A program made the translations under genes and the position numbers. This document shows positions 1,887 through 40,381 of a stretch of DNA of 64,000 bases, one piece after another. The notes below the pieces were generated by a model, which saw nothing but the letters and a program-made list of their open reading frames with translations, ran no database searches and had not been told where the DNA came from. Within the stretch, counting starts at the first letter, position 1; each line of letters opens with the position of its first letter. The DNA is from a virus (Duplodnaviria; Heunggongvirae; Uroviricota; Caudoviricetes), in IMG/VR virus record IMGVR_UViG_3300041955_000143, positions 37,290 to 101,289 of that record. The stretch is one strand, 5' to 3'.

Positions 1887-4800
1887 TTATAGTCCAGACG
1901 GATCAATGCCCTGTTGACGTAGCCTACCTATCACGGCGTCACGCGGAGCACCACGCGCGATGGCATCACGAGCCTGACTAAGAATATCGTTAGCTGGCGC
2001 CGATCTCTCGGCAGCAGTTGGTGCCTCGCCGCCGATCCGTTCATAAGCTTCCTGTGCTTTCGGCGACAAGAATGAAATGTGATCGCGCGTCGTGCCAAAC
2101 GCTCGATCCCATTGATCAGCGACGGAATCGAGTTGGCCCTTAACTAAACGCACCAAAGTTTGATTAGCAACATGCTGTGCGTCCCGCGCCATAGTAGGAT
2201 CAAAGGCTGCAGCGCGCCACTTATCCAATTCTGCTTGTGCCGCACTACTTGACCCTTTGAACGCCTTTACTGCCTCGTCGTTCACGGCATTAGAAGCAGA
2301 TGCCACGCGCGTTAGACGCGGGTCTTGTTGATGTCTCAAAACCCAATTCCGTACTTCATTGGCATATTGCGTACCTAATCCCCACGGACCAATCGAATTG
2401 GATCTAAAATTATCCAAATCAGTCTGCGCGGCTTCTAATTCGTTCAAATGATTTGCCAAAGTATTCATTGGGCGGATGATGTTGCGCGCAGTCGGCCCCG
2501 AGGTAAATTCGCGTATTGCAGCGTTTCGTGCGGTCCAGTTAACCGCATCAAAACTCGGATCGTAAAGCGCGGCTGATTGCAACATCCCCTGCCAGAACGG
2601 TCGCGCCAATGCGAATGATGATGGCGGCGCAATCTTGCCTTGCACCATCATTTTTACAAGCGCCTGTTGCCCCGGCGTCATTCCTACTAATGCCTGATCG
2701 TTGAGTTGCTTCCCAGCAAGAGGATTCTGGAACACTTGTTCGGACAGGGTTCCTCCCTCTGGGGGCGCCACCACGGAGGTAATTCCAGATTGCCGAAGAA
2801 TCTGTGCAAGTTCCGCTTTTGCCTCTGGTGTTTCATCAGCCATCGCGACTCGCACTGATTGCGGCGTTGCTGGTGCAGTCCCTTGCGGCATATTAGCGGC
2901 AGCGGGCGCAGTAGCGGTCGGGACGGCGGGGGCGACGGTTGGAGTTGGGGATAGAGCAGGAATAGGAGAAGTTACCGGCTCGCCAATGGCGCCAGTGTTA
3001 GGATCAATACGCCTGAAAGTATTAGTTGCTGGGTCACGGATTCCATAAATGTCCTGCCCAAGCGGGCCAGTACCGATCTTTACGGGCTGCATGAGTTGAC
3101 GTCTCTCGGCAGCTTCTTTTTGAGCCAAAATCGCCCGCTGATCGGCCGTTAGATCGGTGTAAGGCCGCGTGTGCAGATCGAGTTCTGATTGCCAATGCTT
3201 GGCCTCAAGGTCTAATTTTTTGGCCTCTAAATCAATTTTTCTTTGGGTGAATCCGGCCGCTTGCTCCTGCTCTTTGAGACCTTGATAAGTCTGGGCCCCC
3301 ATCAGACCACCTTCACCGATCGCCACTCCTGGGAATGGAGAACGTGAAGCCAGCATCCCAAGACCAGCGGCCGTCAATGCTGGCCAAAGTTTAGAGTTCC
3401 CCGACCAGTCAATTCCGGCAGGCGTGGGCGAGGCTGCGGCCACTCCAGTCGGAGTAGGCGGTGCCGCGGGCGCAATGCCAGTTGGCGGCGGGGCGAAAGC
3501 GAGGGCCTGCGACGGCATACCGCCGCCCTCGAATTTGTTTTGCCACAGATTCGCAAACTGACCAGCCGTCATTCCCAAGCTGCCGCCGTTTTGTAGTACG
3601 GCATCGCGGCCGACGATGCTCGCCGCAGGCGCGTTGGGATTTGCCAAAAGGGCAAGTGCGCCGTTCGCGCCTTGCTGGTGAGCCAGATATAGCTCGGCGG
3701 CCGTAGGATCGCGGCCCAGCGCGGCGCGGAGAACCTGCTGGTTATCCCGCCCTAATCGTCCAGCCGCATCAGCGCTCGCCGCTGGGTCAGTGGGGTCATC
3801 CAAGCCGTATTGCTTGGCCGTGCTCGGAACGAATTGGAAAAGACCGCTCGCCCCGGAGAACTCATTCCTAGCGTCCGGATTGAGGCCCGATTCGATCTTG
3901 GCGGTTCTCGCCAAGTAACCAGACGGCAGGCCGTATTTGTCCTCTGTCTTGTCGAACAGGGTCGGGCTGCGCCCCGTTGAGACCTCGGGCGGCAACGCGG
4001 CCACACCAGCATCGGCATCGCTCGGGCGCGACGGCGGCAAGGGGACATCGGTGAGAACGCCGTTAGCCGCGTTGGGAGGCGGCAGCATAATCGCGGTATT
4101 GTCTGTCGGATTGATTACGCTACCCGCCCATGACGGCATATTGGTCACGTCGGAAAAGGCTTGATCGAAGTCTGGCCCTCCACCTTCCGCATAGCCGCGT
4201 GGCACCATTATCCGGTCGTGCGTCGGCAGACCGGCAATGCCGCCGGAGGCAAAACGGCCGACACCTCCGCCGTGTGCCCATCCGAGTCCGCTCTGGTCAG
4301 TACCCATACCGAATCCCGACATGTCGGCTGACACGCCAGGATTGGCCGGGGTGACGATATTGCCTTCGTATGTCGGGGCACCTCCACCGGACGGAATGTT
4401 GCCCGGCGAGACACCAACCGGCGCGTTCAGCCCTTGCTGAATGCCCTTTGCCATCTGGCCGATCTGCTGGCCTTGGACCTGCGGTTGCTGGGGTGGCTGT
4501 GGCGGCCTAGGAGGCCCAGGGCCGCGCGCTAGCGATCCGGTCGGCACATATCCAGTCCCGCCGCCATACGGCATCCCTGCCGCTCCGTAGGGGAATGCGG
4601 ATATGCCTGTGGTCTGACCGCCGCCGAGCGCAAAGCCTGGAACCTCGCCGCCTGCGGCAAAGTGTCGCGCTCTATTCGCTACACCGCCATGCCATCGGCG
4701 GATCGCGTCCTTCGTGGCCTCGTCGTAGTCGACGTGCTTGATGCCATGGACTTCATGCACGGCGTCTGGATGATGATGCTCGACGTCCTGCGCAACGAGT

Positions 4801-7771: not shown

Positions 7772-7801
7772 CTTGAGCGCTCCAGTAGCTCACCTTGGTT
7801 A

Positions 7802-7993
7802 CATGCTTATCCGGTTGTCTCACACAGTCAGTCGAAGTAGTCCGTTTTGGTATCGAGCTTTCGGCGCATGATGACTTGGTGCCACAAATAGCCGCCAATC
7901 AGTCCCCAATCGCCAATTTCGTAGGATACGCGAAGCAACTGCCATGCTGTTTTCATGTCCTAACCCCCTGTGTGAGACAACCGGATAAGCATG
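7802..7993. mobile_element. 192-bp MITE with perfect 26-bp terminal inverted repeats (CATGCTTATCCGGTTGTCTCACACAG) flanked by 8-bp target-site duplication CTTGGTTA (7794..7801 and 7994..8001)
   Basis: TIRs and TSD read directly; first 13-15 nt of TIR match the ends of the IS1595-family element at 36598..38899. Confidence 0.65.
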
Positions 7994-8046
7994 CTTGGTT
8001 AGAGGCTCGTTGGCGCACCCACGCCTTCGGGCCTCGATTCATCTTA

Positions 8047-19138: not shown

Positions 19139-21568
19139 TCATGGTCCAACGCCGGTTGGTTCGGGCGGTGCGGACTGCACTTGCCGGTCGAGATCGTTCT
19201 GCGCCGCTTCGTGGAGATGGCCGAGCGCGCCAGACACCAGCTTGTGCCGCCGGTCCTCGACCCCCATAGCCGCGTCGTGGCGACGCTGGGCGGCGCTTTC
19301 CGCTGACCTATGGGCAAGACCCTCCGCAGCCCGTTGCCGCGCTGCACGGCTCGCCATGGTCGCCAGAGCTAGCTTGTGGATGCGATCGGCCGCAGCGTTC
19401 TGATTCTCGACCCCGCGCGCCCGTTCTGCCGCCGCTAGGTCGCCTTGGTGGATAATCTGTTCCCTCGCCACTCCGAGCGAAGCGATTCGCTCCTTGCTCT
19501 GCAATTCCTGCATGCCTTGGGCCGCCTTGATGTCGGCTTCCTTGGCGCGGGTCTGAGCGTCGGCGATCCGAGCCTGTGCCGCCATAATCGTCGCTTGCGC
19601 CGTCAACTGCTCGGGCGGCGGGGGCGGCGGCGGCGAGCCTGGCGCGGGCGGTGGCTTGAAGAAGTCCTGTGCATCGTTAATGCCCATGACGCTCATCGCC
19701 CGCTCGTCGACCTTGTTCATGTCGAGGTTTTGATTCGTCGCCGCCATCTGCCGAAGCGCTACGACCTTGAGATAACGCTCGGTCTGGCTCGAGGTGTTCG
19801 GATCGGCGGCCGGCATCAATTCGCAATCGCTCAGCGCGGCAAGGAACATTGCACGGTGCCGATCTTCCGCCTGTTCCTCGGCATCGGAGACCGGCTGTTG
19901 CCCGGCCATCGCGGTTAACATCTTGAGAACCTTGCTCTTTTTATTGTGCCGCCACAACGCCTCCGGGTCTTCCATCAACAGACTTTTGAGCATATCGAAC
20001 TCTTGGCCTTGGGCTTGGTGCAATCTCTTGTGCACCGCCGACATGAGCTTCGTCGCTTGCTCGATCAGCGCCAAGGTCGTGCCGACCGGAGCGTCCTGCT
20101 TGCCTTCCCCGATTTGGAGCTCGGCCGTGCCGCCGACCCGCTGCGCCGTCGTCGCGATGTTCTCGATTAACTGAATGAAAACGGCGCTCGGGTCCTTGTA
20201 GGGCAGCGGCATGATCGACTGCCGGATGTCCTGCCCGTTGGTGTCGATCGGCATGCCGCCGCCGGGCGGGATGCGGAACTGATTCGTTAACTGCTTCGCC
20301 AGCGATTTGAGGTAGAGGAAGCCGGGGAAGTTGGCGAACATGCCAGCGTCGATCATCAGCCGCCACGCCGCGGTCACCGCCTTCGTGGCGTTGCCGAGTA
20401 CGTTCAAGAGACCGATGCCGTAGAAGCCCAAGCCGGGGATGAAGATATAGGCGATGATCCGGTTCCGCGGCATGCAGAACAGGTCCTCTTCCTCCCAATT
20501 CCTGCGGATTTCGAGGATGCGGCGCGATTCGCGGTCCAGCACCACCTTGTACGGCAACGGCAATCCGGTCTCGACCTGTTCGCCGGTCTTGTCGTCCTTC
20601 AGCGTGTGCTCGAATCCGGGGACTTCGATCTCGCAGTAGCACTCGTATAGTTCGCGGTCCTGGTCGGCCGGTTCTGTATAGGTCGTCGGCGCAATGCCTT
20701 GGACTTGGTCGATCTTGGTCTTGACCGCATCCTTTTGGGTCTGCGCCATGTTCTCTGGAAGCGCGATGTCCAGATATGCGCCGATCAACTGCATCCGCCG
20801 CAACAGGCTCGGCTTCATAAAAATGCGGTGGGTAATGCGGCCCGCGCCGTCAATATCGCTCGCCGTGTTCGAGACGATCAGATCCTCGGCATTGATCGAG
20901 GCAATGACTGGGCGCCGCTTGATCGGATCGTGATAGCCCTTCTTGAACGAAATCCCCGAAAATCCGAGCATCAAGAGCATACGATCGGTGTCGGGATAGT
21001 ATTCCTTGGCAACCTTTATCAGGTAGTGGTTGAGGTCCTTTTCTAGTTCTGTCGCCAGCTTGTCGGCGAGTTCGTTGCCTTCACCGTCGTTCCGGACCTT
21101 GACCGGGCCGTCGCTCGGCAATAGCTCGCCTCGGGCATTGGCTTGGAACCGCAGCACCGCCTCGAGCAATAGCGGATGATCGACCGTGGAGACGCCTTCG
21201 GCTGGCGTTGCTCCGCTCGCCGCAGCGCCGCGGGGATTTTTCACCTGCAGGCCAAGCAACGATATGCCGTTGCTCATGTTCTCAAGCCACTCGGAGCGGC
21301 TTTGCAGGTCTAACTCAATGCCTTGGAGTAGCCTTTCGGCAATCTGGGAAAGGTCGGAGTCTGCCAATAATTCCGCTAGGTTATCGCCGAACTCAGCCGT
21401 TTCCTTGCGCGGTTGCGGTCGTGGCCCGAACGTCACGTCAACCATGCCGTCGGGATTTTCCTGCACTAATGCGCCAGTGTGAACGTCGTAGTCGTCGTCC
21501 GGATTGATAACGACGGTGATCGCCTGCCCGGGCGTGGCACTATCGACGGCGTAGGCGGCGTCCGACAT
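19139..21568 (-). CDS. portal protein (809 aa, P22-like with long C-terminal helical region)
   Basis: Position downstream of terminase, size, internal FIPGLGFYGIGLLN hydrophobic core and long C-terminal Ala/Gln-rich helical tail as in P22-type portals. Confidence 0.6.
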   Translation of the reverse strand: MSDAAYAVDSATPGQAITVVINPDDDYDVHTGALVQENPDGMVDVTFGPRPQPRKETAEFGDNLAELLADSDLSQIAERLLQGIELDLQSRSEWLENMSNGISLLGLQVKNPRGAAASGATPAEGVSTVDHPLLLEAVLRFQANARGELLPSDGPVKVRNDGEGNELADKLATELEKDLNHYLIKVAKEYYPDTDRMLLMLGFSGISFKKGYHDPIKRRPVIASINAEDLIVSNTASDIDGAGRITHRIFMKPSLLRRMQLIGAYLDIALPENMAQTQKDAVKTKIDQVQGIAPTTYTEPADQDRELYECYCEIEVPGFEHTLKDDKTGEQVETGLPLPYKVVLDRESRRILEIRRNWEEEDLFCMPRNRIIAYIFIPGLGFYGIGLLNVLGNATKAVTAAWRLMIDAGMFANFPGFLYLKSLAKQLTNQFRIPPGGGMPIDTNGQDIRQSIMPLPYKDPSAVFIQLIENIATTAQRVGGTAELQIGEGKQDAPVGTTLALIEQATKLMSAVHKRLHQAQGQEFDMLKSLLMEDPEALWRHNKKSKVLKMLTAMAGQQPVSDAEEQAEDRHRAMFLAALSDCELMPAADPNTSSQTERYLKVVALRQMAATNQNLDMNKVDERAMSVMGINDAQDFFKPPPAPGSPPPPPPPEQLTAQATIMAAQARIADAQTRAKEADIKAAQGMQELQSKERIASLGVAREQIIHQGDLAAAERARGVENQNAAADRIHKLALATMASRAARQRAAEGLAHRSAESAAQRRHDAAMGVEDRRHKLVSGALGHLHEAAQNDLDRQVQSAPPEPTGVGP

Positions 21569-24324: not shown

Positions 24325-26118
24325 CTATCCACCTACCCCGTAGGCGTTTGCGACCGTATCGTGCGGTGGGCCTTTGTAGCGCATTTCGTCTTCAAGGAGA
24401 CTACTCATCTCCTCAGCGCGCACAAGCAATCCTTGCTCGCGGAGCCAGCCGATCGCCATGCTGCAAGAATCCACCAGGTCGTCATGCTCGCCTCTGGGGA
24501 ACAACTCATTTTGCTGGATCGTATCCTCCGCCCATTTCGTGTTCGGAGCCCAGATAGCTCCATCGGTAAACATCGGCACGATCGAATGTGCCCGCGAAAC
24601 CTTGTCACCGACCGGGTTGACCATCCAGATTCCCCAATTCTCGCGGGCGTAGAGCCGCCGAATTTCGTTCGCGACGTCATGGCCGCGAGTCTTGTTCTCG
24701 ATCAAAAGCCGGTTGACCTTGTAGCGCTTGCAGGTATCGGCAACCCATTCGACCAGGCCCCATTCGTGCTGCTGGCGAGAGGTGAAACTGACCTTGGCCT
24801 CGCCGGGCCGCGCCGAGATCACCTTGCCGTGAAGCGGCAACCGCTTCGCCCACGCAAACATCAGCATCGCGCGGCGGTTCTTGTTGACGTCGACCCAGAT
24901 GCCCCAGACCGTCAAGGCGTTAAAGTCGTTCTCGGTTTTCTCGCCGAGCGCGGTGTCGAGGCTGGCGACGATCAGATCGCACAGCGGAAACTCCTTGCGG
25001 TTCTCATTCCACTCCAAGCCATAAACCTTGGCCGCAGTTCCATCCCAAGTCTGCCACCAGTCTCGTTTGATGATGCCGCCTCCCTTCGGAATAGGCGATT
25101 GCTGCAGACGACCACTCGCCATATAGATTCCGAGCGTACTCTTGATTCGGCGCAACTCTTTCTGCCCAAACCGTTCTGGCCACATCAGTTCGTCAGGTTC
25201 AGTGCGTGGGTCCTCGAAAAACACCTCCTCGCAATCGTCAACGTCCTCGTCGAAGAACGACTCGATCATGTCGCTGCCAGTGCGGTATCCGTTCACCCAT
25301 CGCCGCGGCACGTACTCCATGGGAATAACCAGCGTGCAGTATTCCTCTTGCCCCGCGAGCACTATGCCCGAGAGATCGCCCTGGTGAAGGCGCTGCATGT
25401 TCAGGACGATGGCGCTTTGCTTAGGATCGTTGAGGCGCGTCGATGATAACTCCTGCCACCAGCTTGCGACCTTGCGCCGATCAGCGTCGGTCTCGATCTT
25501 TTTTTCAGTCTCGGTGTTGTGGGGATCGTCCACGGAAATAATGTCACCGCCGAGCCCTAGAAGCGAACCGCTAACCGACGTGGCAATACGCGACCCACCT
25601 TCAGTGTTGTCGAAATGGTGCTTCGCAGCCTGGTCGATGCGCAGCGTAAAACGATCCGCCCAATAGCGTTGATAGAACGGACTGAGCAATAGCCGGCGTG
25701 TCTGGTTCGAGGCTGTCAGTGAAAGCCGCTCGTTATAGCTACCACTAAGAAACGCTACCTGCGGCCCGCTGAGAAAGGTACGTTCGGACCGCGCCCATAT
25801 CCAGGCGTTCCAAGCCACTGAAACCATTTTGGTTTTGCCGGTCCTTGGGGGCTGATTTATGAGCAGCCGCAGGATGTGACCTTCTGTGACGGCCTGAAGG
25901 TGGTCGCAAACGGCACCTATAATCCACGAATCTTGGAACGGAGCCGAATCAATCGAAGGCCACGCCGCCTCGAGGAAATCGCGGAAGCTATTTTCGTATA
26001 GCTCTCGTTCCTCACGCCAGTTTCTCTCGCGGAGTTTTGAGCGGAGAATGTCTACACGCTCAATAATGTCGGGGGTGATGGTTTGGTCGGTCATCGCATC
26101 GCGTCGTGGCCAGACCAA
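24325..26118 (-). CDS. terL: terminase large subunit
   Basis: 597 aa; Walker A-like NQPPRTGKTKM, Walker B-like GGDIISVDDPHNTE, C-terminal nuclease-type acidic residues (HDDLVDS); size and position before portal. Confidence 0.8.
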   Translation of the reverse strand: MVWPRRDAMTDQTITPDIIERVDILRSKLRERNWREERELYENSFRDFLEAAWPSIDSAPFQDSWIIGAVCDHLQAVTEGHILRLLINQPPRTGKTKMVSVAWNAWIWARSERTFLSGPQVAFLSGSYNERLSLTASNQTRRLLLSPFYQRYWADRFTLRIDQAAKHHFDNTEGGSRIATSVSGSLLGLGGDIISVDDPHNTETEKKIETDADRRKVASWWQELSSTRLNDPKQSAIVLNMQRLHQGDLSGIVLAGQEEYCTLVIPMEYVPRRWVNGYRTGSDMIESFFDEDVDDCEEVFFEDPRTEPDELMWPERFGQKELRRIKSTLGIYMASGRLQQSPIPKGGGIIKRDWWQTWDGTAAKVYGLEWNENRKEFPLCDLIVASLDTALGEKTENDFNALTVWGIWVDVNKNRRAMLMFAWAKRLPLHGKVISARPGEAKVSFTSRQQHEWGLVEWVADTCKRYKVNRLLIENKTRGHDVANEIRRLYARENWGIWMVNPVGDKVSRAHSIVPMFTDGAIWAPNTKWAEDTIQQNELFPRGEHDDLVDSCSMAIGWLREQGLLVRAEEMSSLLEDEMRYKGPPHDTVANAYGVGG

Positions 26119-28563: not shown

Positions 28564-29025
28564 CTAAACTCCCTCTGATGGCGTCGGCGGAGTTTTAGCC
28601 GCCTCCACAGCGGCAACCCGTTCCCCGACCATCGCCGCGACGTCAATCGATTCGCGGACTTTGTCGGTGAATATGGCAACCAGCGGCAATAGGCCGAACA
28701 TCGACCGCTCGAAGCATACCGATTCTTTGCCGTCGACGGTAGCGACATACGCTTTAACCCCCGGCAACCCACAGATCACGTTCGGGTCATCGTAGCCTTG
28801 CGCTTTTGCCATCTCGCCGGCAACGGCAACCTCATGCTCAAGGCCAGCGTTAGCCACAGTCGCATTCCACTCGTCTCGGACCGCATCGAACATGGCAACC
28901 ATCAGCGCGGTAATGACAGCGCGATCGACCGTAAGCTGGCCGCTAACTTCCTTCGCAACTAGTTCCTTGGCTGCAGCGCGGAGCGATGCACTGGCCTCGG
29001 CATACGCAGAAACAGGCTCGTTCAC
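28564..29025 (-). CDS. hypothetical protein (153 aa)
   Basis: ORF. Confidence 0.4.
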   Translation of the reverse strand: MNEPVSAYAEASASLRAAAKELVAKEVSGQLTVDRAVITALMVAMFDAVRDEWNATVANAGLEHEVAVAGEMAKAQGYDDPNVICGLPGVKAYVATVDGKESVCFERSMFGLLPLVAIFTDKVRESIDVAAMVGERVAAVEAAKTPPTPSEGV

Positions 29026-32204: not shown

Positions 32205-32504
32205 TTAAGCTGCCTTGACGCCAAGCCGCTCAAGCTCGGTCGCGGCGTCATCTCGCCTAGCCTCGAATACGGCCCACAACGCTTTAGTAAACTCCTCTTC
32301 GAGATCGCCCGACCATCCGATGCTCGACACGGTGCCACCGCCTGTCTGACCGCCTCGCTCAATGCGAAATTGGGTTGAATTTTCTGCATGCTGGATAAGC
32401 ATGATACCGACTACTCTCATGCCAGCCAAAGCATCTAAATTATGCTCGGCCCGCTTTAGCTTTTCGTGCAGACTTGCCGCTTCCTCTAGTTCCGAACGGG
32501 TCAT
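32205..32504 (-). CDS. hypothetical protein (99 aa)
   Basis: ORF. Confidence 0.35.
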   Translation of the reverse strand: MTRSELEEAASLHEKLKRAEHNLDALAGMRVVGIMLIQHAENSTQFRIERGGQTGGGTVSSIGWSGDLEEEFTKALWAVFEARRDDAATELERLGVKAA

Positions 32505-33865: not shown

Positions 33866-34639
33866 TCATGGCTTACATTCCATAAAGGCTCCAATAAATT
33901 CAGCGGCTAACGGCGCGACAATCGCGTTGCCGTAGGCGCGCAGGCGTCCCACTCGGCCGGGTATCCCTGTAGCCAGCGGGAATGTGCCGGATTCAACTGG
34001 CCGCGCTTTTCCGTCTGTGCAGGGGAGCCAGTCGCAATCTGCCCAACCTGCTGCGACAACGGGATGCCCGTGTCCGTTGGCCGTGGAGGTCGAACCCCGC
34101 GCGAATGATCCTGTGCTGTCGGGCTCACCCATCCCGCAATCGCGGTGGGCCACGAACCACAATCGTTGCCTGATGTGCGGCGCGCCGACGCCGCAAGCTG
34201 GCAGTACGGCCGATGCGCAGGCGTAGCCTTGTCCTTCCAAGTCAGCGAAAACAAGGTCGAGCCAACCCCATCCAATCGCCGCTTCAACTTGCTCACCAAA
34301 GATTGTTCTAGGGCGGCACTCGCGGATGAGAGATGCCCACGAAGGCCACAGGTGGCGTTCGTCATTGGCCGCCTTGCCCGCTCCTGCGGCGCTGAAAGGC
34401 TGGCAGGGACAAGAGCCTGTCCAAACAAATCTTTCGCCCCAATTGGCGAGATTGAGGGCATAGTCCCAGCCTCCGATTCCTGCGAAGAAATGTGCTCGTT
34501 CGACGTCTGGAATGTCGTCAGGGCTGAGGTCTTCGATTGGTCGGTCATCAATTTTTCCCGGCGTTATGTGTCCAGCGTCCATAAGGTTACTGAGCCAATC
34601 GCAGCAATAGCGATCAATCTCATTGTAAAATGCTTTCAT
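33866..34639 (-). CDS. DNA (cytosine-5)-methyltransferase (short form, 257 aa)
   Basis: Motif I FAGIGGW and motif IV PCQPFS(AAG) read from translation. Confidence 0.7.
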   Translation of the reverse strand: MKAFYNEIDRYCCDWLSNLMDAGHITPGKIDDRPIEDLSPDDIPDVERAHFFAGIGGWDYALNLANWGERFVWTGSCPCQPFSAAGAGKAANDERHLWPSWASLIRECRPRTIFGEQVEAAIGWGWLDLVFADLEGQGYACASAVLPACGVGAPHIRQRLWFVAHRDCGMGEPDSTGSFARGSTSTANGHGHPVVAAGWADCDWLPCTDGKARPVESGTFPLATGIPGRVGRLRAYGNAIVAPLAAEFIGAFMECKP

Positions 34640-36017: not shown

Positions 36018-36241
36018 CTATGAGCGAATTTGTCGGTGGTGACGTTAACGCAGTCCTGCGGTTGGTAAAATCACTTTCGGATGACGGCGACACTCAGCTT
36101 TCGATTCTGACAGTGGCGCTTGTAACCGCGTGTCGGTCATGTGGGGTTGACCGCGAGAGCGCAATGCCGATCATTCTGGAGGCATTTGACGATCAGCGGG
36201 ATTTAGTCCCGCTAGGCAGCGCGGAAGCTATCGGGTCATAA
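36018..36241 (+). CDS. hypothetical protein (~74 aa, MSEFVGGDVNAVLRLVKSL...)
   Basis: ORF open from 35936, with Met28 start at 36018 chosen by eye; ends directly before the IS1595 transposase remnant; locally lower GC. Confidence 0.3.
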
Positions 36242-36242
36242 G

Positions 36243-36356
36243 GAGAAGCTCGGCATCGGCGCGAACGGCGAAAGCCCGACCTACGACGGCCTGTACAGCG
36301 GCAAGTGGCATCATCAAAAGGTCAGTCATGACGACGAGGAACTACATGCTTGAACC
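36243..36356 (+). pseudogene. remnant of IS1595-family transposase C-terminus (…LGIGANGESPTYDGLYSGKWHHQKVSHDDEELHA*)
   Basis: Near-identical at nt and aa level to the last 35 codons of the intact transposase at 37817..38884 (LGIGANGESPTYDGLYSGEWTHPNVSHG...). Confidence 0.5.
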
Positions 36357-36527
36357 AAAAAATGCCGATGCTTTAAGGCCAAAGGCCAATCGTGACTGTT
36401 TGGTTTGTGGTGGCCGAGGCTGGTATATCGGAAAGACCACTGATCCAACGCGGAACAGCGGCGATGAACCAAAGGAGTGTCCTTGCACAAAGTTGGATTG
36501 GCACAAGGACTAGCGATCATGGGAGAA

Positions 36528-36542
36528 AACCGGATAAGCATG
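36528..36542. repeat. solo copy of IS right-end inverted repeat (AACCGGATAAGCATG)
   Basis: Identical to the right terminus of the element at 38885..38899; lies 55 bp upstream of the intact element's left end. Confidence 0.4.
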
Positions 36543-36610
36543 TTTTGTTTAGTGTTTGATCCATTGAACAAATCACATAACCGTCCTTGTCAACTTTCAT
36601 GCTTATCCGC

Positions 36611-36639
36611 TTGACACATGCACCTACTTGTGCTAGTGT
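36611..36639 (+). promoter_or_regulatory. candidate sigma70-type promoter inside the IS left end (TTGACA-17 nt-TAGTGT) followed by RBS AAGGGAG upstream of the passenger operon
   Basis: Hexamers and spacing read from sequence ttgacacatgcacctacttgtgctagtgt. Confidence 0.35.
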
Positions 36640-36658
36640 TTGCGTAACGTAAGGGAGT

Positions 36659-37030
36659 TTGAGCATGATTATCTACCTCGCTGGCGGCATGAAAGACGGA
36701 TGGCAGGATCGAGCCATTAACCTTCTTGAAGGGCATGAAATCCTCGACCCTCGATCTTGGGGCGACCCGAACCCGGCTATCTATACGGAGCGTGACCTTT
36801 CGGCGGTTCGCCGGTCGGATTGGCTCTTGGTTCACATGGCCTCTACAAACCCAAGCGGCTTTGGCCTGTCCGTTGAACTTGGCTACGCTTATGCTCTTGG
36901 GAAAAAGATTGTGTTCTGCGACGAAATTCGCAGCGATTGGCGTTCGCCGTACTTCGGGATGCACCGCGAAATGGCTACCGAAGTTGTCCATACGCTTGAA
37001 GCTGCGGCGGCTGTAATTAAGGGAAATTAA
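36659..37030 (+). CDS. nucleoside 2-deoxyribosyltransferase-like protein (Rcl/DNPH1/NDT fold)
   Basis: MIIYLAGGMKDGWQDRA N-terminus and SVELGYAYALGKKIV (catalytic Glu in E-L-G context) match the NDT-like family pattern; lower GC than phage backbone. Confidence 0.55.
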   Translation: MSMIIYLAGGMKDGWQDRAINLLEGHEILDPRSWGDPNPAIYTERDLSAVRRSDWLLVHMASTNPSGFGLSVELGYAYALGKKIVFCDEIRSDWRSPYFGMHREMATEVVHTLEAAAAVIKGN

Positions 37031-37033
37031 CCA

Positions 37034-37813
37034 ATGTCCGCTTTCAGCCCGTTGTTTGGGAAAGCGCCAGAGTCGGGCCGGGTGTTGGCATGGTTTTCGT
37101 GCGGCGATGCTAGTGCCGTTGCGGCTAAGCTGGCCGTCGAAAAGTATGGTGCTCGTTGTGAAGTGCTGTATTGTGACACCTTCGCTTTTGAACACCCGGA
37201 CAACCGACGTTTTTTCAAAGACGTTGAAAAGTGGCTCGGTTGCGAAATAAAAATCCTTAAATCGCAAGACTATCGAGACATTTATGACGTTTTTGAAAAG
37301 ACCCGTTGGCTTGTTGGAGTTGGTGGAGCGCGATGCACCACGGAACTGAAAAAGAATGTTCGCCGTGCTTACCAGCGCCCGGACGACACTCATATTTTTG
37401 GCTTCACTACTGACGAGAAAAAGCGAGCCAAGCGGTTTCATGAAAACAGCCCCGACTTGTTCGCTGAATTTCCTTTGATTGACGCCAAAATAGCCAAGGC
37501 TGACTGTCATCAGCGGATGCGCGATGCGGGTATTGAACTGCCCGCCATGTACCGGCTTGGCTATAAAAACAACAACTGCATCGGATGCGTGAAGGGCCAA
37601 AGTGGGTATTGGAACAAAATTCGCCGCGACTTCCCTGAAATCTTCAACAAGATGGCTAAGCAGGAACGCAGTTTGAACGCGGCCATCAATAAAAAGTACG
37701 TTAAAGGCAAGCGCCAGCGGGTTTTCCTTGATGAATTGCCACCCACTGCCGGACGTTATGAAAGCGAAGCTGACATTGAGTGCGGCGTTATCTGTGTGAC
37801 AGCAAAGGATTAA
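37034..37813 (+). CDS. PP-loop ATP pyrophosphatase, PAPS-reductase-like family
   Basis: LAWFSCGDASAVAAKL resembles the SGGxDS PP-loop; overall size/pattern like phage PAPS-reductase/DndC/IbrA-type proteins; assignment by eye only. Confidence 0.5.
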   Translation: MSAFSPLFGKAPESGRVLAWFSCGDASAVAAKLAVEKYGARCEVLYCDTFAFEHPDNRRFFKDVEKWLGCEIKILKSQDYRDIYDVFEKTRWLVGVGGARCTTELKKNVRRAYQRPDDTHIFGFTTDEKKRAKRFHENSPDLFAEFPLIDAKIAKADCHQRMRDAGIELPAMYRLGYKNNNCIGCVKGQSGYWNKIRRDFPEIFNKMAKQERSLNAAINKKYVKGKRQRVFLDELPPTAGRYESEADIECGVICVTAKD

Positions 37814-37816
37814 GTC

Positions 37817-38884
37817 ATGGTTCACGACATTCACCAATGGGAAAAACTGCCGTTCCCGAAGTCCCTGAGAGACTTTCAACGGCTTTTCCTCGACGACGCG
37901 GCGTGCGCTCGCTATCTCGAAGGCGCAAAATGGCCGGACGGCTTTCAATGTCCGCACTGCAAAGCCCGTGGCGAGCCTGTACGCATTGCTAAACGCCCGC
38001 TTGTGCTGGCGTGTCGCAAGTGCCGCAAGCAAACCTCCCTGACGGTCGGCACGGTCATGGAAAGCACTCATACGCCGCTGACGACTTGGTTTTGGGGCGC
38101 TTACCTCATTTCCAGCATGACGCCCGGTCTGTCTGCTGTTCAATTCCAGCGCCAGCTTGGCCTTACCCGATACGAAACCGCCTTCGGCATCCTACACAAG
38201 CTTCGCGCCGGTATGGTGCGCCAAGACCGCGACCGGATCGGCGGCAGCATTTCGGGCCGGGACCATATCGAAATTGACGAAACCTATATCGGCGGCGTGC
38301 TGCGCGGCGAGGGCAAAGGCCCCCATGCCGACGAAAAGACCCTTGTGGTCGCCGCCGTCGAGGTTCGCACCCGACCGCCCAAGAAGGGCGACAAGCCGCA
38401 ACGGCGCGGCGGGCGCTATGCCGGTCGCCTTCGGCTTGAAATCGTCCCCGACCGCACCGCCAAGTCCCTGTGCGGCTTTGTAGAGGCTGCGGTTGATCCT
38501 ACGTCCAACATGGTCGTTACCGATGCTTGGGGCGGCTACAACTCGCTGGCTGATCGCGGCTACGCCCACATGCCGGTCGTCGAGTCGAACAAGCCCGATG
38601 TTGCGGAAGAATACCTGCCAATCGTTCACCTTGTTTTCAGCAACCTCAAGGCTTGGCTGCAAGGCACGCACCACGGGCGCGTCGAGCCTAAGCACCTGCA
38701 AGCCTACCTCAACGAATTTACCTTCCGCTTCAATCGCCGCTTCTACCCGTTCAACGCCTTTCGTTCGCTCTTGGGCATTGGCGCAAACGGCGAAAGCCCG
38801 ACCTATGACGGGCTGTATAGTGGCGAATGGACGCATCCGAATGTCAGTCATGGAACACATCAACCGCTAGACACTGCATGTTGA
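37817..38884 (+). CDS. IS1595-family (ISXO2-like) DDE transposase
   Basis: N-terminal transposase zinc ribbon (AKWPDGFQCPHCKARGE...CRKCRK), DDE-region motifs HIEIDETYIGG, TDAWGGYNSL, C-terminal YLNEFTFRFNRR; paralogous to 62186..63088. Confidence 0.8.
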   Translation: MVHDIHQWEKLPFPKSLRDFQRLFLDDAACARYLEGAKWPDGFQCPHCKARGEPVRIAKRPLVLACRKCRKQTSLTVGTVMESTHTPLTTWFWGAYLISSMTPGLSAVQFQRQLGLTRYETAFGILHKLRAGMVRQDRDRIGGSISGRDHIEIDETYIGGVLRGEGKGPHADEKTLVVAAVEVRTRPPKKGDKPQRRGGRYAGRLRLEIVPDRTAKSLCGFVEAAVDPTSNMVVTDAWGGYNSLADRGYAHMPVVESNKPDVAEEYLPIVHLVFSNLKAWLQGTHHGRVEPKHLQAYLNEFTFRFNRRFYPFNAFRSLLGIGANGESPTYDGLYSGEWTHPNVSHGTHQPLDTAC

Positions 38885-38934
38885 AACCGGATAAGCATGT
38901 CAACTTTGATTGGCAGAACTTCCTTCACGGCGCG

Positions 38935-39111
38935 TCATTTGATCCTCTCGTCTTCGGTGGATTTCTTTATGGCATTGGCAAATGACAAGTCCGACTGCTC
39001 TGGGATAAAGGCCGAACCGTCATCGAAACCGCGCAATAATTTCAGCGCAGCAGCCGCCTCGCGTTCCCTGTGCTGGCGCACCGGCACAATGCCTGTCCAG
39101 ACATAGATCAT
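38935..39111 (-). CDS. small hypothetical protein (58 aa)
   Basis: Hand-translated ORF MIYVWTGIVPVRQHREREAAAALKLLRGFDDGSAFIPEQ...; stop lies 35 bp from IS insertion site. Confidence 0.3.
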   Translation of the reverse strand: MIYVWTGIVPVRQHREREAAAALKLLRGFDDGSAFIPEQSDLSFANAIKKSTEDERIK

Positions 39112-39353
39112 AGCTTGAAATCCGATCTGTAGAAGCGATTATGTCCCGGTGTGATGCGTGGTTTTAGCTGTTTATCCGCCCGCAGAACCGCGTAGTGCCG
39201 GTTTATCGTCCGCGTCGAGCAGTGAAGTTTTTGCGCGACATACTGCGCTCTGTGGCCGGCGAGAAATGCGGCCTCAATCTCGGCGAGTTCTGCTGCAGTG
39301 AAATGGTCGTGGTGGTTACGGGATTTTTCCCAGGTGTCGGGGGGATGGGTCAT
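39108..39353 (-). CDS. small HTH protein (sigma70 region-4/HTH_23-like)
   Basis: FTAAELAEIEAAFLAGHRAQYVAQKLHCSTRTINRHY; ORF open to 39521 but Met57 start (39353) gives ATGA coupling to upstream gene. Confidence 0.4.
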   Translation of the reverse strand: MTHPPDTWEKSRNHHDHFTAAELAEIEAAFLAGHRAQYVAQKLHCSTRTINRHYAVLRADKQLKPRITPGHNRFYRSDFKL

Positions 39354-40381
39354 GCTGGCATCTCCCTGACCCGCAATCGTTCTGGCCATTCTGCTTGGTC
39401 TCCCCCTTTTGCGGATCGTAAGTGAAGCGGATAGCCGTCGCTCAATGGCGCGGCGCCGAGTTGCTTGACAAAACACGCAACGCCAGCAGCCTCGCATTGC
39501 GCCACGATGCTGTCGGCCCATTCGATCTGCATCGGGCGTGCATTAGGTCCACTCTCTCCACCGACGATCACCCAATCTAGCGCCGCATGCCCCGAGGTGT
39601 CGCCGCCGTTACCATCGCCGCCCCATGGGCTAAATCGTTTACCGTTTAGGCAACTCTCCCATGAATGGCCGAGGCCACCGTCAAACTCCTCGTGAATGCG
39701 CGTGAGGTCAATCGGCGCCAATAGCGGCTCCGCCGAAATAAATCGGACCGCCGCCGGCGTCTGCAATAGAAGCGGTATGCGCTCGTCGGCTTCCTGCTGG
39801 CGTTCGCAGGAGACGCCGAGCCAACAATTTTCAAGCGGCCAGCAGTAACGAATCTTTGCTGGCGTAACAGTCTCGGCGAAGGCAACATTTCGATGCGTGG
39901 CGCACTGTGCCGCAACGCGCGAGCAGACGTCTCCACCGCCGATGCTGCTCACAGTGGTATCCGACATGTAGCGGCACATTCGCTCCGCTCGCTTCGTAAG
40001 GATTTGAAAAGTGTGCTGCGGGCATAACGCGGCGATAGCCAACATCTTGTCGATCCATTCATCCTTCACGAAGTCGGCGAACAGGTCGGTCATCGAACAG
40101 ACGAAGATCATGCGCGGCTTTTTCCAGCGTAGCGGCGCCTGCAGCATTTCATCGTCGAGAAAAATTTCGACGTCCTTGCGGTGCCCCGGCTTGAACGGCA
40201 GGCCAGTGCCGAGCCGCTTGTTCATGCTCTCGGCGTAGCAAAACTCGCATCCTACCGTAGCATGTTCACAGTACCAGCCGATACGCCCCCACGGTTCGCC
40301 GTCAGACCCGACCCCCGATCGGCGAGCTCGTATTGGCGTCCATGAGGCGTCCGTCCATTCTATGTTTGAGCGGTCGCTCAT
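39350..40381 (-). CDS. phage Gp37/Gp68-family protein (DUF5131)
   Basis: N-terminal SNIEWTDASWTP...GWYCEHATVGCEFCYAE matches DUF5131 signature (IEWT..W.P..GC...S.GC..CYA). Confidence 0.6.
   Translation of the reverse strand: MSDRSNIEWTDASWTPIRARRSGVGSDGEPWGRIGWYCEHATVGCEFCYAESMNKRLGTGLPFKPGHRKDVEIFLDDEMLQAPLRWKKPRMIFVCSMTDLFADFVKDEWIDKMLAIAALCPQHTFQILTKRAERMCRYMSDTTVSSIGGGDVCSRVAAQCATHRNVAFAETVTPAKIRYCWPLENCWLGVSCERQQEADERIPLLLQTPAAVRFISAEPLLAPIDLTRIHEEFDGGLGHSWESCLNGKRFSPWGGDGNGGDTSGHAALDWVIVGGESGPNARPMQIEWADSIVAQCEAAGVACFVKQLGAAPLSDGYPLHLRSAKGGDQAEWPERLRVREMPA

Follow-up and report, generated by a model that had tools for sequence, protein, structure and literature searches.

How does an insertion sequence (IS) in a phage genome come to carry two enzyme genes, and what would these genes do there? 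The question is raised by a locus in a 64,000-nucleotide stretch of viral DNA, called the window in the following (IMG/VR record IMGVR_UViG_3300041955_000143, positions 37,290 to 101,289; Caudoviricetes). Phage genomes seldom contain intact insertion sequences, and those that carry cargo are rarer still. The element in the window (36598-38899, 2302 bp) belongs to the IS1595 family and contains three tightly packed open reading frames (ORFs) on the plus strand: ORF1, encoding a protein with the fold of nucleoside 2-deoxyribosyltransferases (NDTs) and DNPH1, ORF2, encoding a PP-loop protein with the fold of phosphoadenosine phosphosulfate (PAPS) reductases, and the transposase gene. The explanation that we consider likely is a transporter IS that carries a pre-existing phage module, for which we infer a role in modification or counter-defence.

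A cargo-carrying IS1595 element

The element is bounded by a target site duplication (TSD) of 8 bp, TCAACTTT, which is found at 36590-36597 and again, with eight of eight positions matching, at 38900-38907. Target duplications of 8 bp are typical of the IS1595 family (ISfinder). The left end (IRL, plus strand) covers 36598-36645; its first 25 nucleotides (36598-36622) pair with the 25 nucleotides of the right end (IRR, 38875-38899, minus strand), which extends into the final codons of the transposase gene. Over these 25 nucleotides the two ends are 84% complementary, and their first 12 nucleotides, CATGCTTATCCG, are identical. With up to one mismatch this 12-mer occurs six times in the window, compared to an expected 0.42 occurrences, and none of 100 shuffled sequences reached six. 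Homology of the IRL to left ends of the ISAcr1 type extends past the promoter described below to approximately position 36645. ORF1 and ORF2 are separated by 3 nucleotides, as are ORF2 and the transposase gene, and the G/C content of the cargo (0.51) is lower than that of the transposase gene (0.597) and of the window (0.57).

The transposase gene (37817-38884, plus strand) encodes a protein of 355 amino acids with an N-terminal Zn ribbon and a DDE domain, which matches PF12762 (6.3e-32), PF12760 (1.2e-11) and NF033547 (2.5e-55). Among named relatives, ISAcr1 of Acidiphilium is the nearest, with identities of 67% (nucleotide) and 64% (protein), and the closest transposase copies in metagenome-assembled genomes (MAGs) are 75-78% identical. 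Because protein identity to every copy retrieved is below 80%, the element would need a new IS name. Passenger-carrying (transporter) members of the family, of the ISNwi1/ISNha5 type, are catalogued in ISfinder, and the element described here is apparently a functional IS of this kind, from an ISAcr1-like clade found mostly in Alphaproteobacteria. Its activity is deduced from the perfect TSD, the intact transposase ORF and a miniature inverted-repeat transposable element (MITE) with the same ends in the same genome, and transposition itself is likewise read from the sequence.

The element, oriented along the plus strand, occupies a convergent intergenic gap of approximately 110 bp between an ORF on the plus strand for a Zn-ribbon protein (61 amino acids, 36328-36513) and the end of an operon on the minus strand (ORF of 58 amino acids, 38935-39111), and does not disrupt any gene. 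The element would have entered this gap as a single unit of 2302 bp, thereby duplicating 8 bp; an allele with an empty site would read ...CCGTCCTTGTCAACTTTGATTGGCAGAAC... Both junctions recur in independent metagenome assemblies (L001, L003, L034, L035), so an assembly artefact can be excluded. The exact transposase was not found in any other record, and the contigs with the exact ORF2 all represent the same locus. A DNA search of cultured phages and plasmids returned only short stretches of ORF2 and transposase matches of 67-69%, and for the flanks only the methylase and DUF5131 genes. The preliminary description of this locus, made from the sequence alone, had proposed an IS1595-family element with imperfect terminal inverted repeats (TIRs) of about 25 bp, an 8-bp TSD, an intergenic insertion site and two tightly coupled passenger genes of lower G/C content; all of these features were found again, the repeats and the TSD at the positions given there, and the family assignment is borne out by the transposase domains.

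The window as a whole represents a tailed phage or prophage. Genes for the large terminase subunit (24325-26118), the portal (19139-21568), and virion and ejection/tail proteins are all encoded on the minus strand. The element is located in the non-structural region, which was described earlier as, and may be, an early region and which contains genes for a C5-methylase (33866-34639), an RNase H-like protein and an Erf-like recombinase; its further neighbours encode a helix-turn-helix (HTH) protein and a DUF5131 protein (39350-40381).

The promoter belongs to the IS and the cargo occupies a slot behind it

A sigma-70-type promoter is located in the left end (36611-36639, plus strand), with TTGACA at 36611-36616, a spacer of 17 nucleotides and TAGTGT at 36634-36639. 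The -10 box is extended by a TG at 36631-36632 (TG-n-TAGTGT). We argue for promoter function because the layout of -35 box, 17-nucleotide spacer and -10 box is conserved in at least eight related copies (L018, which is ISAcr1, L019, an IS of Tardibacter, L071, L073, L076, L077, L078 and L150). ISAcr1 and the Tardibacter IS have a homologous left end with TTGAC(T/G)-17-TAGTG(T/G) directly 5' of the transposase ATG, and in 79 genomic relatives, mostly from alphaproteobacterial MAGs, the core of the left end is usually located 42-67 bp before this ATG. These plain relatives are approximately 1.1 kb long and have no cargo between promoter and transposase gene. The promoter was earlier taken to be the cargo's own; its place in the plain relatives, where it drives the transposase gene, indicates that it is a conserved promoter of the IS itself and that the cargo sits between it and the transposase gene. 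In plain relatives such as L077 the distance from the -10 box to the ATG is only about 7 nucleotides, so that the transposase mRNA may be leaderless.

In the closest relatives the distance between left end and transposase gene is larger, 321-866 bp (L071/72 with 78% and L073 with 75% identity, L076, L078, L118, L141). Below a recognisable left end, L071/72, L073, L076, L078 and L141 contain ORFs of 84-213 amino acids in this position. None of these is related to ORF1 or ORF2, and the only Pfam match is that of the L141 ORF, to the Uma2 nuclease. Judging from these sequences, a cargo slot between promoter and transposase gene is a habit of this IS clade, and an alternative left end further upstream is therefore not needed for gene capture. 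Capture by means of such an upstream end had been considered and was dropped in view of the regular slot of the relatives. L141 has two left ends in tandem.

The cassette travels with the IS lineage

Whether the two genes are cargo in the strict sense depends on their occurrence with IS ends elsewhere. A contig from another metagenome (L150) contains an intact IRL (CATGCTTATCCGGTTGAC...) followed by ORF1 (86% identity) and ORF2 (84%), with a different flank. Another contig (L033) retains a remnant of the -10 box, ORF1 (72%), ORF2 (77%), a C-terminal remnant of the transposase gene and the IRR. In L017, remnants of the N- and C-terminal parts of the transposase come directly after ORF1 (74%), followed by the IRR just before the gene for DNA polymerase A, and in L021-24 a decayed IRL (TTGGCA-17-TAGTGT), ORF1 (75%), a divergent ORF2 (42%) and an intact IRR are present without a transposase gene. 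One independent copy with an intact IRL and three decayed or transposase-less derivatives thus indicate that the cassette has moved with this IS lineage, as had been proposed for the pair in the window.

It might be argued that ORF1 and ORF2 are resident phage genes with a plain IS inserted downstream, and that the left repeat is an unrelated solo remnant and the matching 8-mer a coincidence. The solo end remnants in the same genome (36505-36543 and 32392-32403, see below) would be in line with this, as would the fact that the pair is native to other phages. However, the gap of 3 nucleotides between ORF2 and the transposase gene does not contain a second left end, the duplication is perfect and located exactly at the outer ends, and the same order of IRL, ORF1 and ORF2 is found at another site in L150, while in L021 the pair is bracketed by IRL and IRR. 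We consider such a coincidence hardly credible.

The same gene pair without the IS

The cassette also occurs without IS ends. In L025-32 the pair is located between the gene for an Enc34-type single-stranded DNA (ssDNA)-binding protein and that for DNA polymerase A, and in L039/L040 it comes after a RuvC-like gene, with a gene-junction duplication of 31-35 bp on its two sides. The repeats in L040 (868-900 and 1983-2013, CTGAAACCATAACAGTGGATGACCTATAATG) are two copies of the junction at which the stop and start of the adjoining phage genes meet; in this arrangement the same cassette was inserted independently of the IS. Further pair loci without IS ends are L042 and L043. In L037 (595-3060) an ORF1 homologue with 84% identity overlaps the stop codon of a PAPS_reduct gene encoding 343 amino acids (motif SFSGGETS). 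Here a 36-bp duplication of the 3' end of the PAPS_reduct gene flanks the ORF1 homologue, both proteins end with CEESCEVF..DD, and a convergent DUF6551 gene with a ParB-like motif is located downstream.

Genes of the ORF1 family adjoin an ORF for a PAPS_reduct/PP-loop protein in approximately 22 of 31 distinct contexts. For distant ORF1 homologues, 14 of 28 neighbours match PF01507, and more are recognised by phmmer or by an SGGxDS motif; when NDT-like genes at a still greater distance were sampled from viral contigs, the proportion with a PP-loop neighbour fell to 4 of 14. The partners are of the FSCGDAS type, of SGGKDS types (190-310 amino acids) or of the SFSGG(E/R)TS type (299-343 amino acids), and the two genes occur in either order. 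Because the linkage recurs without the IS and across subfamilies, it is a property of the two protein families and not of the IS. In the literature on NDT and PAPS reductase pairing we found no relevant report, and the papers on the reappraisal of Dnd and on BREX do not mention it; the recurrent linkage of NDT-fold and PP-loop genes is apparently undescribed.

As far as these contexts indicate, the cassette is a pre-existing phage module, in which ORF1 is the rarer accessory and nearly always stands next to a PP-loop gene. The preliminary description had regarded the pair as an unfamiliar combination made on the IS, which does not hold, as the pairing recurs in phage contigs that lack IS ends and transposase. 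It had also set the cargo reading against the pair being a conserved phage operon. Both sides of this contrast are found in part: the pair is present free of the IS in many phages and it also travels as IS cargo.

Two protein families

ORF1 (36665-37030, plus strand, 121 amino acids) starts with the ATG at 36665, which is the common start of its homologues, and the ribosome binding site (RBS) AAGGGAG (36651-57) is located 8 nucleotides upstream. The protein matches PF05014 with 30.9 bits (cut-off 28.8) and reaches 29.8 bits with PF15891 (cut-off 30). An AlphaFold model (AF2, 37 homologues) has a pLDDT of 95.3, and Foldseek retrieves NDTs, YtoQ, DNPH1, MilB and BcmB with E values of 3e-6 to 1e-3, the match to 7o62 having an E value of 3e-6 and a TM-score of 0.75-0.78. 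ORF1 also resembles many phage proteins annotated as NDTs. Profile search and structure prediction thus both agree with the nucleoside-deoxyribosyltransferase/DNPH1 fold that had been suggested for it. Invariant in the family are W13, P29, Y40, D44, N62-P-S-G65, G67, E71 and G73. E71 is present in all 37 homologues, and hidden Markov model (HMM) alignments place it opposite the Glu in the catalytic loop of 2a0k and of 4hx9; it is the candidate catalytic Glu of a GxGxxxExG loop.

The family has 52 close homologues, and a tblastn search of 50,697 cultured phage genomes gave no match to ORF1. In many close relatives, among them P0179, P0180 and P0187, the ORF1 domain is the C-terminal domain of proteins of 300-420 amino acids that have an N-terminal multi-pass membrane domain. 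This architecture, found in about half of the top 150 matches to the ORF1 domain, resembles that of abortive-infection effectors. The sole context seen for membrane-fused relatives is L152, a short contig with an HTH_17 gene. A fusion of ORF1 and PP-loop domains in one protein (Rosetta-stone fusion) had been considered for the proteins of 300-420 amino acids and was rejected, as they carry a membrane domain and not a PP-loop domain.

ORF2 (37034-37813, plus strand, 259 amino acids) is a PptA/SspD-like PP-loop protein. It matches phrog_424, labelled 'phosphoadenosine phosphosulfate reductase', with 4.4e-52 and the PADLOC model for SspD with 2.7e-14. The strongest match to a solved structure is that to PDB 21fy chain C, 'PptA' (5.4e-72 over residues 13-256, or 2.8e-88 when the profile of the family is used; the identity over 244 residues is approximately 55%). 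The ORF2 model has a pLDDT of 87.5 and folds like CysH/APS reductases, TtuA and LarE. Here, too, the phrog_424 match and the structure model agree with the PAPS-reductase-like PP-loop fold initially proposed, with PF01507 remaining below its cut-off; the fold match to CysH/APS reductases speaks for a place in this superfamily. Eight Cys residues are invariant in the family, including a CxxC (182/185) and a C-terminal E-C-G-V-x-C, a pattern that would be expected for an Fe-S enzyme that handles sulfur.

More than 8000 proteins among the candidates scored are homologues of ORF2 at E<=1e-3; identity is 69% or higher for each of the top 120, and copies with 40-51% identity are found in cultured phages of many hosts. 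In most phages the ORF2 family stands alone, sometimes as a classic moron. An example is a 93%-identical homologue in L006 (IMG/VR UViG_3300047539_000043, 3862-4790) and L013, which is located alone between the genes for major capsid and head completion, with a terminator hairpin, TTGACA-17-TATGTA and an RBS; homology to the window begins exactly at the ATG of ORF2. Three ORF2 homologues of 371-375 amino acids (P0137, P0160, P0168) contain an extra N-terminal domain of approximately 115 amino acids (MRxYLAHP...GAGVAKE...LPVYD), which in one of them gave a weak full-length match to DUF4406 (E 0.041). Comparison of a profile of this domain with the ORF1-family profile gave no significant match; a fusion of an NDT-clan domain to a PP-loop enzyme is possible in these proteins.

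Possible roles of the module and alternative explanations

If the three genes work as proposed, the promoter in the left end would drive ORF1, ORF2 and the transposase gene as one operon. ORF2 would be an Fe-S ATP-pyrophosphatase whose substrate, a nucleic acid or a nucleotide, would be adenylated and probably also thiolated. For ORF1 we propose the activity of an N-glycosidase or transferase on nucleotides, by which it would supply, trim or recycle a nucleotide that ORF2 uses. The joint task of the two would be modification of phage DNA or nucleotides or counter-defence, for instance against phosphorothioate-dependent restriction, and not sulfate assimilation. Precedents from phages exist: a fusion of a PAPS domain with Dam confers escape from Dnd in vibriophages (10.1101/2021.05.05.442762), and PAPS reductases are found in Aca-regulated operons that are putatively anti-defence (PMC13551039). 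The 'PAPS reductases' of prophages have been called puzzling, with no downstream pathway genes (bioRxiv 10.64898/2026.02.18.706556). From sequence and context, the role that we favour, nucleic acid or nucleotide modification or counter-defence, is probably the correct one. The more specific version, which we regard as possible rather than probable, is an undescribed two-enzyme phage system for nucleotide or DNA modification, or for counter-defence by destroying or re-making a nucleotide signal. It would be a selfish and highly mobile cassette with at least two ways of spreading among phage genomes, namely IS1595 transporter elements with their transposase-less derivatives, and insertion independent of an IS, which leaves 31-36-bp duplications at the junctions. 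In that case insertion sequences would truly serve to carry accessory genes, such as morons or anti-defence genes, from phage to phage.

Several observations weigh against this explanation or parts of it. For the element, only a single complete copy with transposase is on record, as L150 ends at the contig edge, and a search with the flanking proteins did not find an allele with an empty site. The exact 61-amino-acid flanking protein is not on record elsewhere, and the other exact flanking proteins are found only on contigs containing the IS. The -10 box of the promoter is weak, matching the E. coli consensus TATAAT at three of six positions, and the promoter was missed by a generic scan of 36200-39300 for promoters and terminators, which found nothing beyond the shuffled expectation. 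For ORF2, the PP motif FSCGDAS is degenerate compared to SGGxDS, with S22, C23, G24 and S27 invariant in the family, and the match to the Pfam model PAPS_reduct (PF01507) covers 166 of 175 model positions with 20.2 bits (E 6e-4), below the cut-off of 22.5. A literature search gave no relevant publication on PptA, the one relative that has been studied. The contexts of ORF1 all come from metagenomic contigs, as none of the 50,697 cultured phage genomes has a homologue. Synthesis of phosphorothioates is reported to need a PAPS-domain protein together with an NTPase (PMC12914056), and no gene for an NTPase, DndE/SspB or a desulfurase was found within the element or next to it. The phage protein that counters Dnd is a fusion of PAPS and Dam domains and probably not a member of the ORF2 family.

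An alternative that appears rather unlikely is a pathway for a non-canonical deoxynucleotide, in which the PP-loop enzyme would modify a base or nucleotide, for example by thiolation or amination, the NDT-fold enzyme would move this base onto deoxyribose-5-phosphate or release it, and the phage DNA polymerase would use the product. Such a pathway would be in line with the location of the pair directly upstream of DNA polymerase A in several phage contigs, and next to genes for ssDNA-binding and RuvC-like proteins, a deoxynucleoside monophosphate (dNMP) kinase and methylases in several contigs. Enzymes of the NDT/DNPH1/MilB family cleave or transfer N-glycosidic bonds, the Foldseek search with ORF2 retrieves YcfA, a PP-loop enzyme of 6-thioguanine synthesis, as well as the sulfur transferases TtuA and LarE, and the ORF1 family pairs with several PP-loop subfamilies. 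However, ORF2-family genes without ORF1 number in the thousands, so ORF2 needs no NDT partner, and neither a kinase nor a dNTPase nor other pathway genes are consistently linked to the pair. No phage DNA modification is known to use a pair of NDT-fold and PP-loop enzymes.

The preliminary description had named a nucleotide-depleting defence among the possible roles. In such a defence the pair would protect the lysogen or exclude superinfecting phages by depleting nucleotides or cleaving NAD or dNMP when another phage infects. We regard this as improbable. In its favour, many of the nearest non-phage relatives of ORF1 have an N-terminal membrane domain typical of abortive-infection effectors, an ORF2 homologue that stands alone forms a moron with a separate promoter within a structural operon, and ORF1 shows a weak similarity to ThsB/TIR-like proteins (E 0.075). 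Nothing was found specifically in favour of depletion. ORF1 has no significant PADLOC match and ORF2 matches only the modification component SspD, the contexts are mostly replication modules of phage contigs and not defence islands, and ORF1 is without a sensor or effector partner beyond the PP-loop enzyme. A NAD reconstitution model of the NARP type was also rejected, since NARP3 is an unrelated PnuC/NadR pair. Still less probable is an auxiliary metabolic function of ORF2 as an assimilatory (P)APS reductase, which would boost sulfur assimilation of the host in line with the usual annotation of phage 'cysH' genes, with ORF1 as an unrelated neighbour. ECGLH is the catalytic tail of CysH, and the Fe-S ligands of APS reductases include a CxxC and further Cys residues; the C-terminal ECGVxC of ORF2 is similar but not identical to this tail, and its CxxC and other Cys residues resemble these ligands. 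The best structural matches of ORF2 are CysH/APS reductases and the phrog_424 label points in the same direction, but ORF2 is no more than 15-17% identical to the CysH structures (TM-scores 0.42-0.54), and PF01507 stays below its cut-off while the SspD model is matched clearly. In addition, no other genes for sulfur assimilation are located nearby, and the linkage to an NDT-fold gene and to replication and anti-defence neighbourhoods would be left unexplained.

Further copies of the IS family in the window

The same phage genome contains additional traces of this IS family. A MITE of 192 bp (7802-7993) with perfect TIRs of 26 nucleotides, CATGCTTATCCGGTTGTCTCACACAG, is flanked by an 8-bp TSD, CTTGGTTA (7794-7801 and 7994-8001), and lies between two late genes on the minus strand. 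The first 15 nucleotides of its repeats are identical to the right end of the element, the transposase of which probably mobilised it in trans. The MITE contains an ORF for 42 amino acids (7828-7956, minus strand, MKTAWQLLRVSYEIGDWGLIGGYLWHQVIMRRKLDTKTDYFD) that has an RBS and the same orientation as the late genes around it; no Pfam match was found for it. A solo right-end remnant of 39 bp (36505-36543, plus strand) consists of the 3' end of a transposase gene and an IRR, ...AAACCGGATAAGCATG. It is located 55 bp upstream of the intact element, is closer to the right ends of L017 and L033 than to the intact copy, and may have provided the 3' end of the ORF for the 61-amino-acid Zn-ribbon protein. 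Its location suggests that members of the family inserted here more than once or that they prefer targets close to their own ends. A weaker end-like 12-mer at 32392-32403, TGGATAAGCATG, has one mismatch, is in right-end orientation and shows no similarity beyond approximately 11 nucleotides; it may be due to chance or represent a very old remnant. The intact element, the MITE, the 36505-36543 remnant and this motif together indicate that the phage was hit repeatedly by this IS family.

This phage thus bears a transporter IS that is intact, a MITE that shares its ends and has a micro-ORF, and two end remnants, and related phage contigs contain decayed copies with cargo. Together these sequences are direct evidence for an IS lineage that shuttles an accessory module between phages and then decays, leaving its cargo behind. 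Apparently new are the linkage of NDT-fold and PP-loop genes and the circulation in phages of an IS lineage with transposase-less derivatives, a MITE and small accessory genes. In addition, the linkage provides a testable handle on the function of the very abundant 'PAPS reductase' genes of phages, which are mostly annotated as genes of sulfur metabolism but may encode enzymes of nucleic acid modification or anti-defence.

Apart from these elements, ARAGORN calls an unusually long tRNA-Gly of 99 nucleotides (anticodon ACC) on the minus strand at 28678-28776, in the non-structural region of the window.

Comparison with known systems

The superfamily of ORF1 and the family of ORF2 are known, and for the latter a structure has been solved. 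ORF1 shares with NDTs, DNPH1/Rcl and the CMP N-glycosidases MilB/BcmB the fold (TM-score up to 0.78), a PF05014 match above cut-off, the position of the catalytic Glu (E71), a conserved N-terminal Tyr and a mid-chain Asp. It differs from them in its low identity (16-30%), its shorter length of 121 amino acids, the loop NPSGFGLSxELG, the invariant W13 and its coupling in genomes to PP-loop enzymes. ORF2 has all family-invariant Cys residues in common with PptA (PDB 21fy), as well as the FSCG PP motif, NNNCxGC and the C-terminal ECxxxC; unlike most members of the PptA/phrog_424 family, which stand alone, it is coupled to an NDT-fold gene and located within an IS.

Compared to the DNA phosphorothioation proteins DndC, SspD and BrxP, ORF2 is similar in its PP-loop/PAPS-reductase fold, its match to the SspD model and its richness in Cys, whereas the element differs from Dnd, Ssp and BREX-4 systems in that an NTPase (DndD/SspC/BrxC), a DndE/SspB partner or a desulfurase is not encoded adjacent to it. 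These partner genes were looked for and are absent, and the element is not a Dnd/Ssp/BREX-4 system. The PAPS-Dam fusion of Vibrio phages (Piel et al. 2022; preprint 10.1101/2021.05.05.442762), for which an anti-defence effect was demonstrated by experiment, is likewise encoded by a phage-borne gene with a PAPS-reductase domain, in a variable region that related phages exchange; it differs in being a protein of 479 amino acids with a Dam methylase and in having no NDT-fold partner. The IbrA/IbrB pairs also combine a gene of the PAPS-reductase family with a small partner gene on a mobile element, and in L037 an ORF1 homologue is located between a PAPS_reduct gene and the DUF6551 gene with its ParB-like motif. 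The partner of ORF2 is of the NDT fold and not ParB-like; an ORF of the ParB-like type is absent from 36300-39500 of the window, and the element is not an IbrAB pair.

With ISAcr1 and other members of the IS1595 family the element shares the transposase with Zn ribbon and DDE_Tnp_IS1595 domain (64% identity to ISAcr1-type proteins), the left end with its TTGAC-17-TAGTGT promoter, repeats of approximately 25-45 nucleotides and the 8-bp duplication, and its closest relatives also carry genes between left end and transposase. It differs from them in that its cargo is a two-gene phage module and its replicon a phage, and its lineage differs in having left transposase-less derivatives that consist of the cargo only in other phage contigs.

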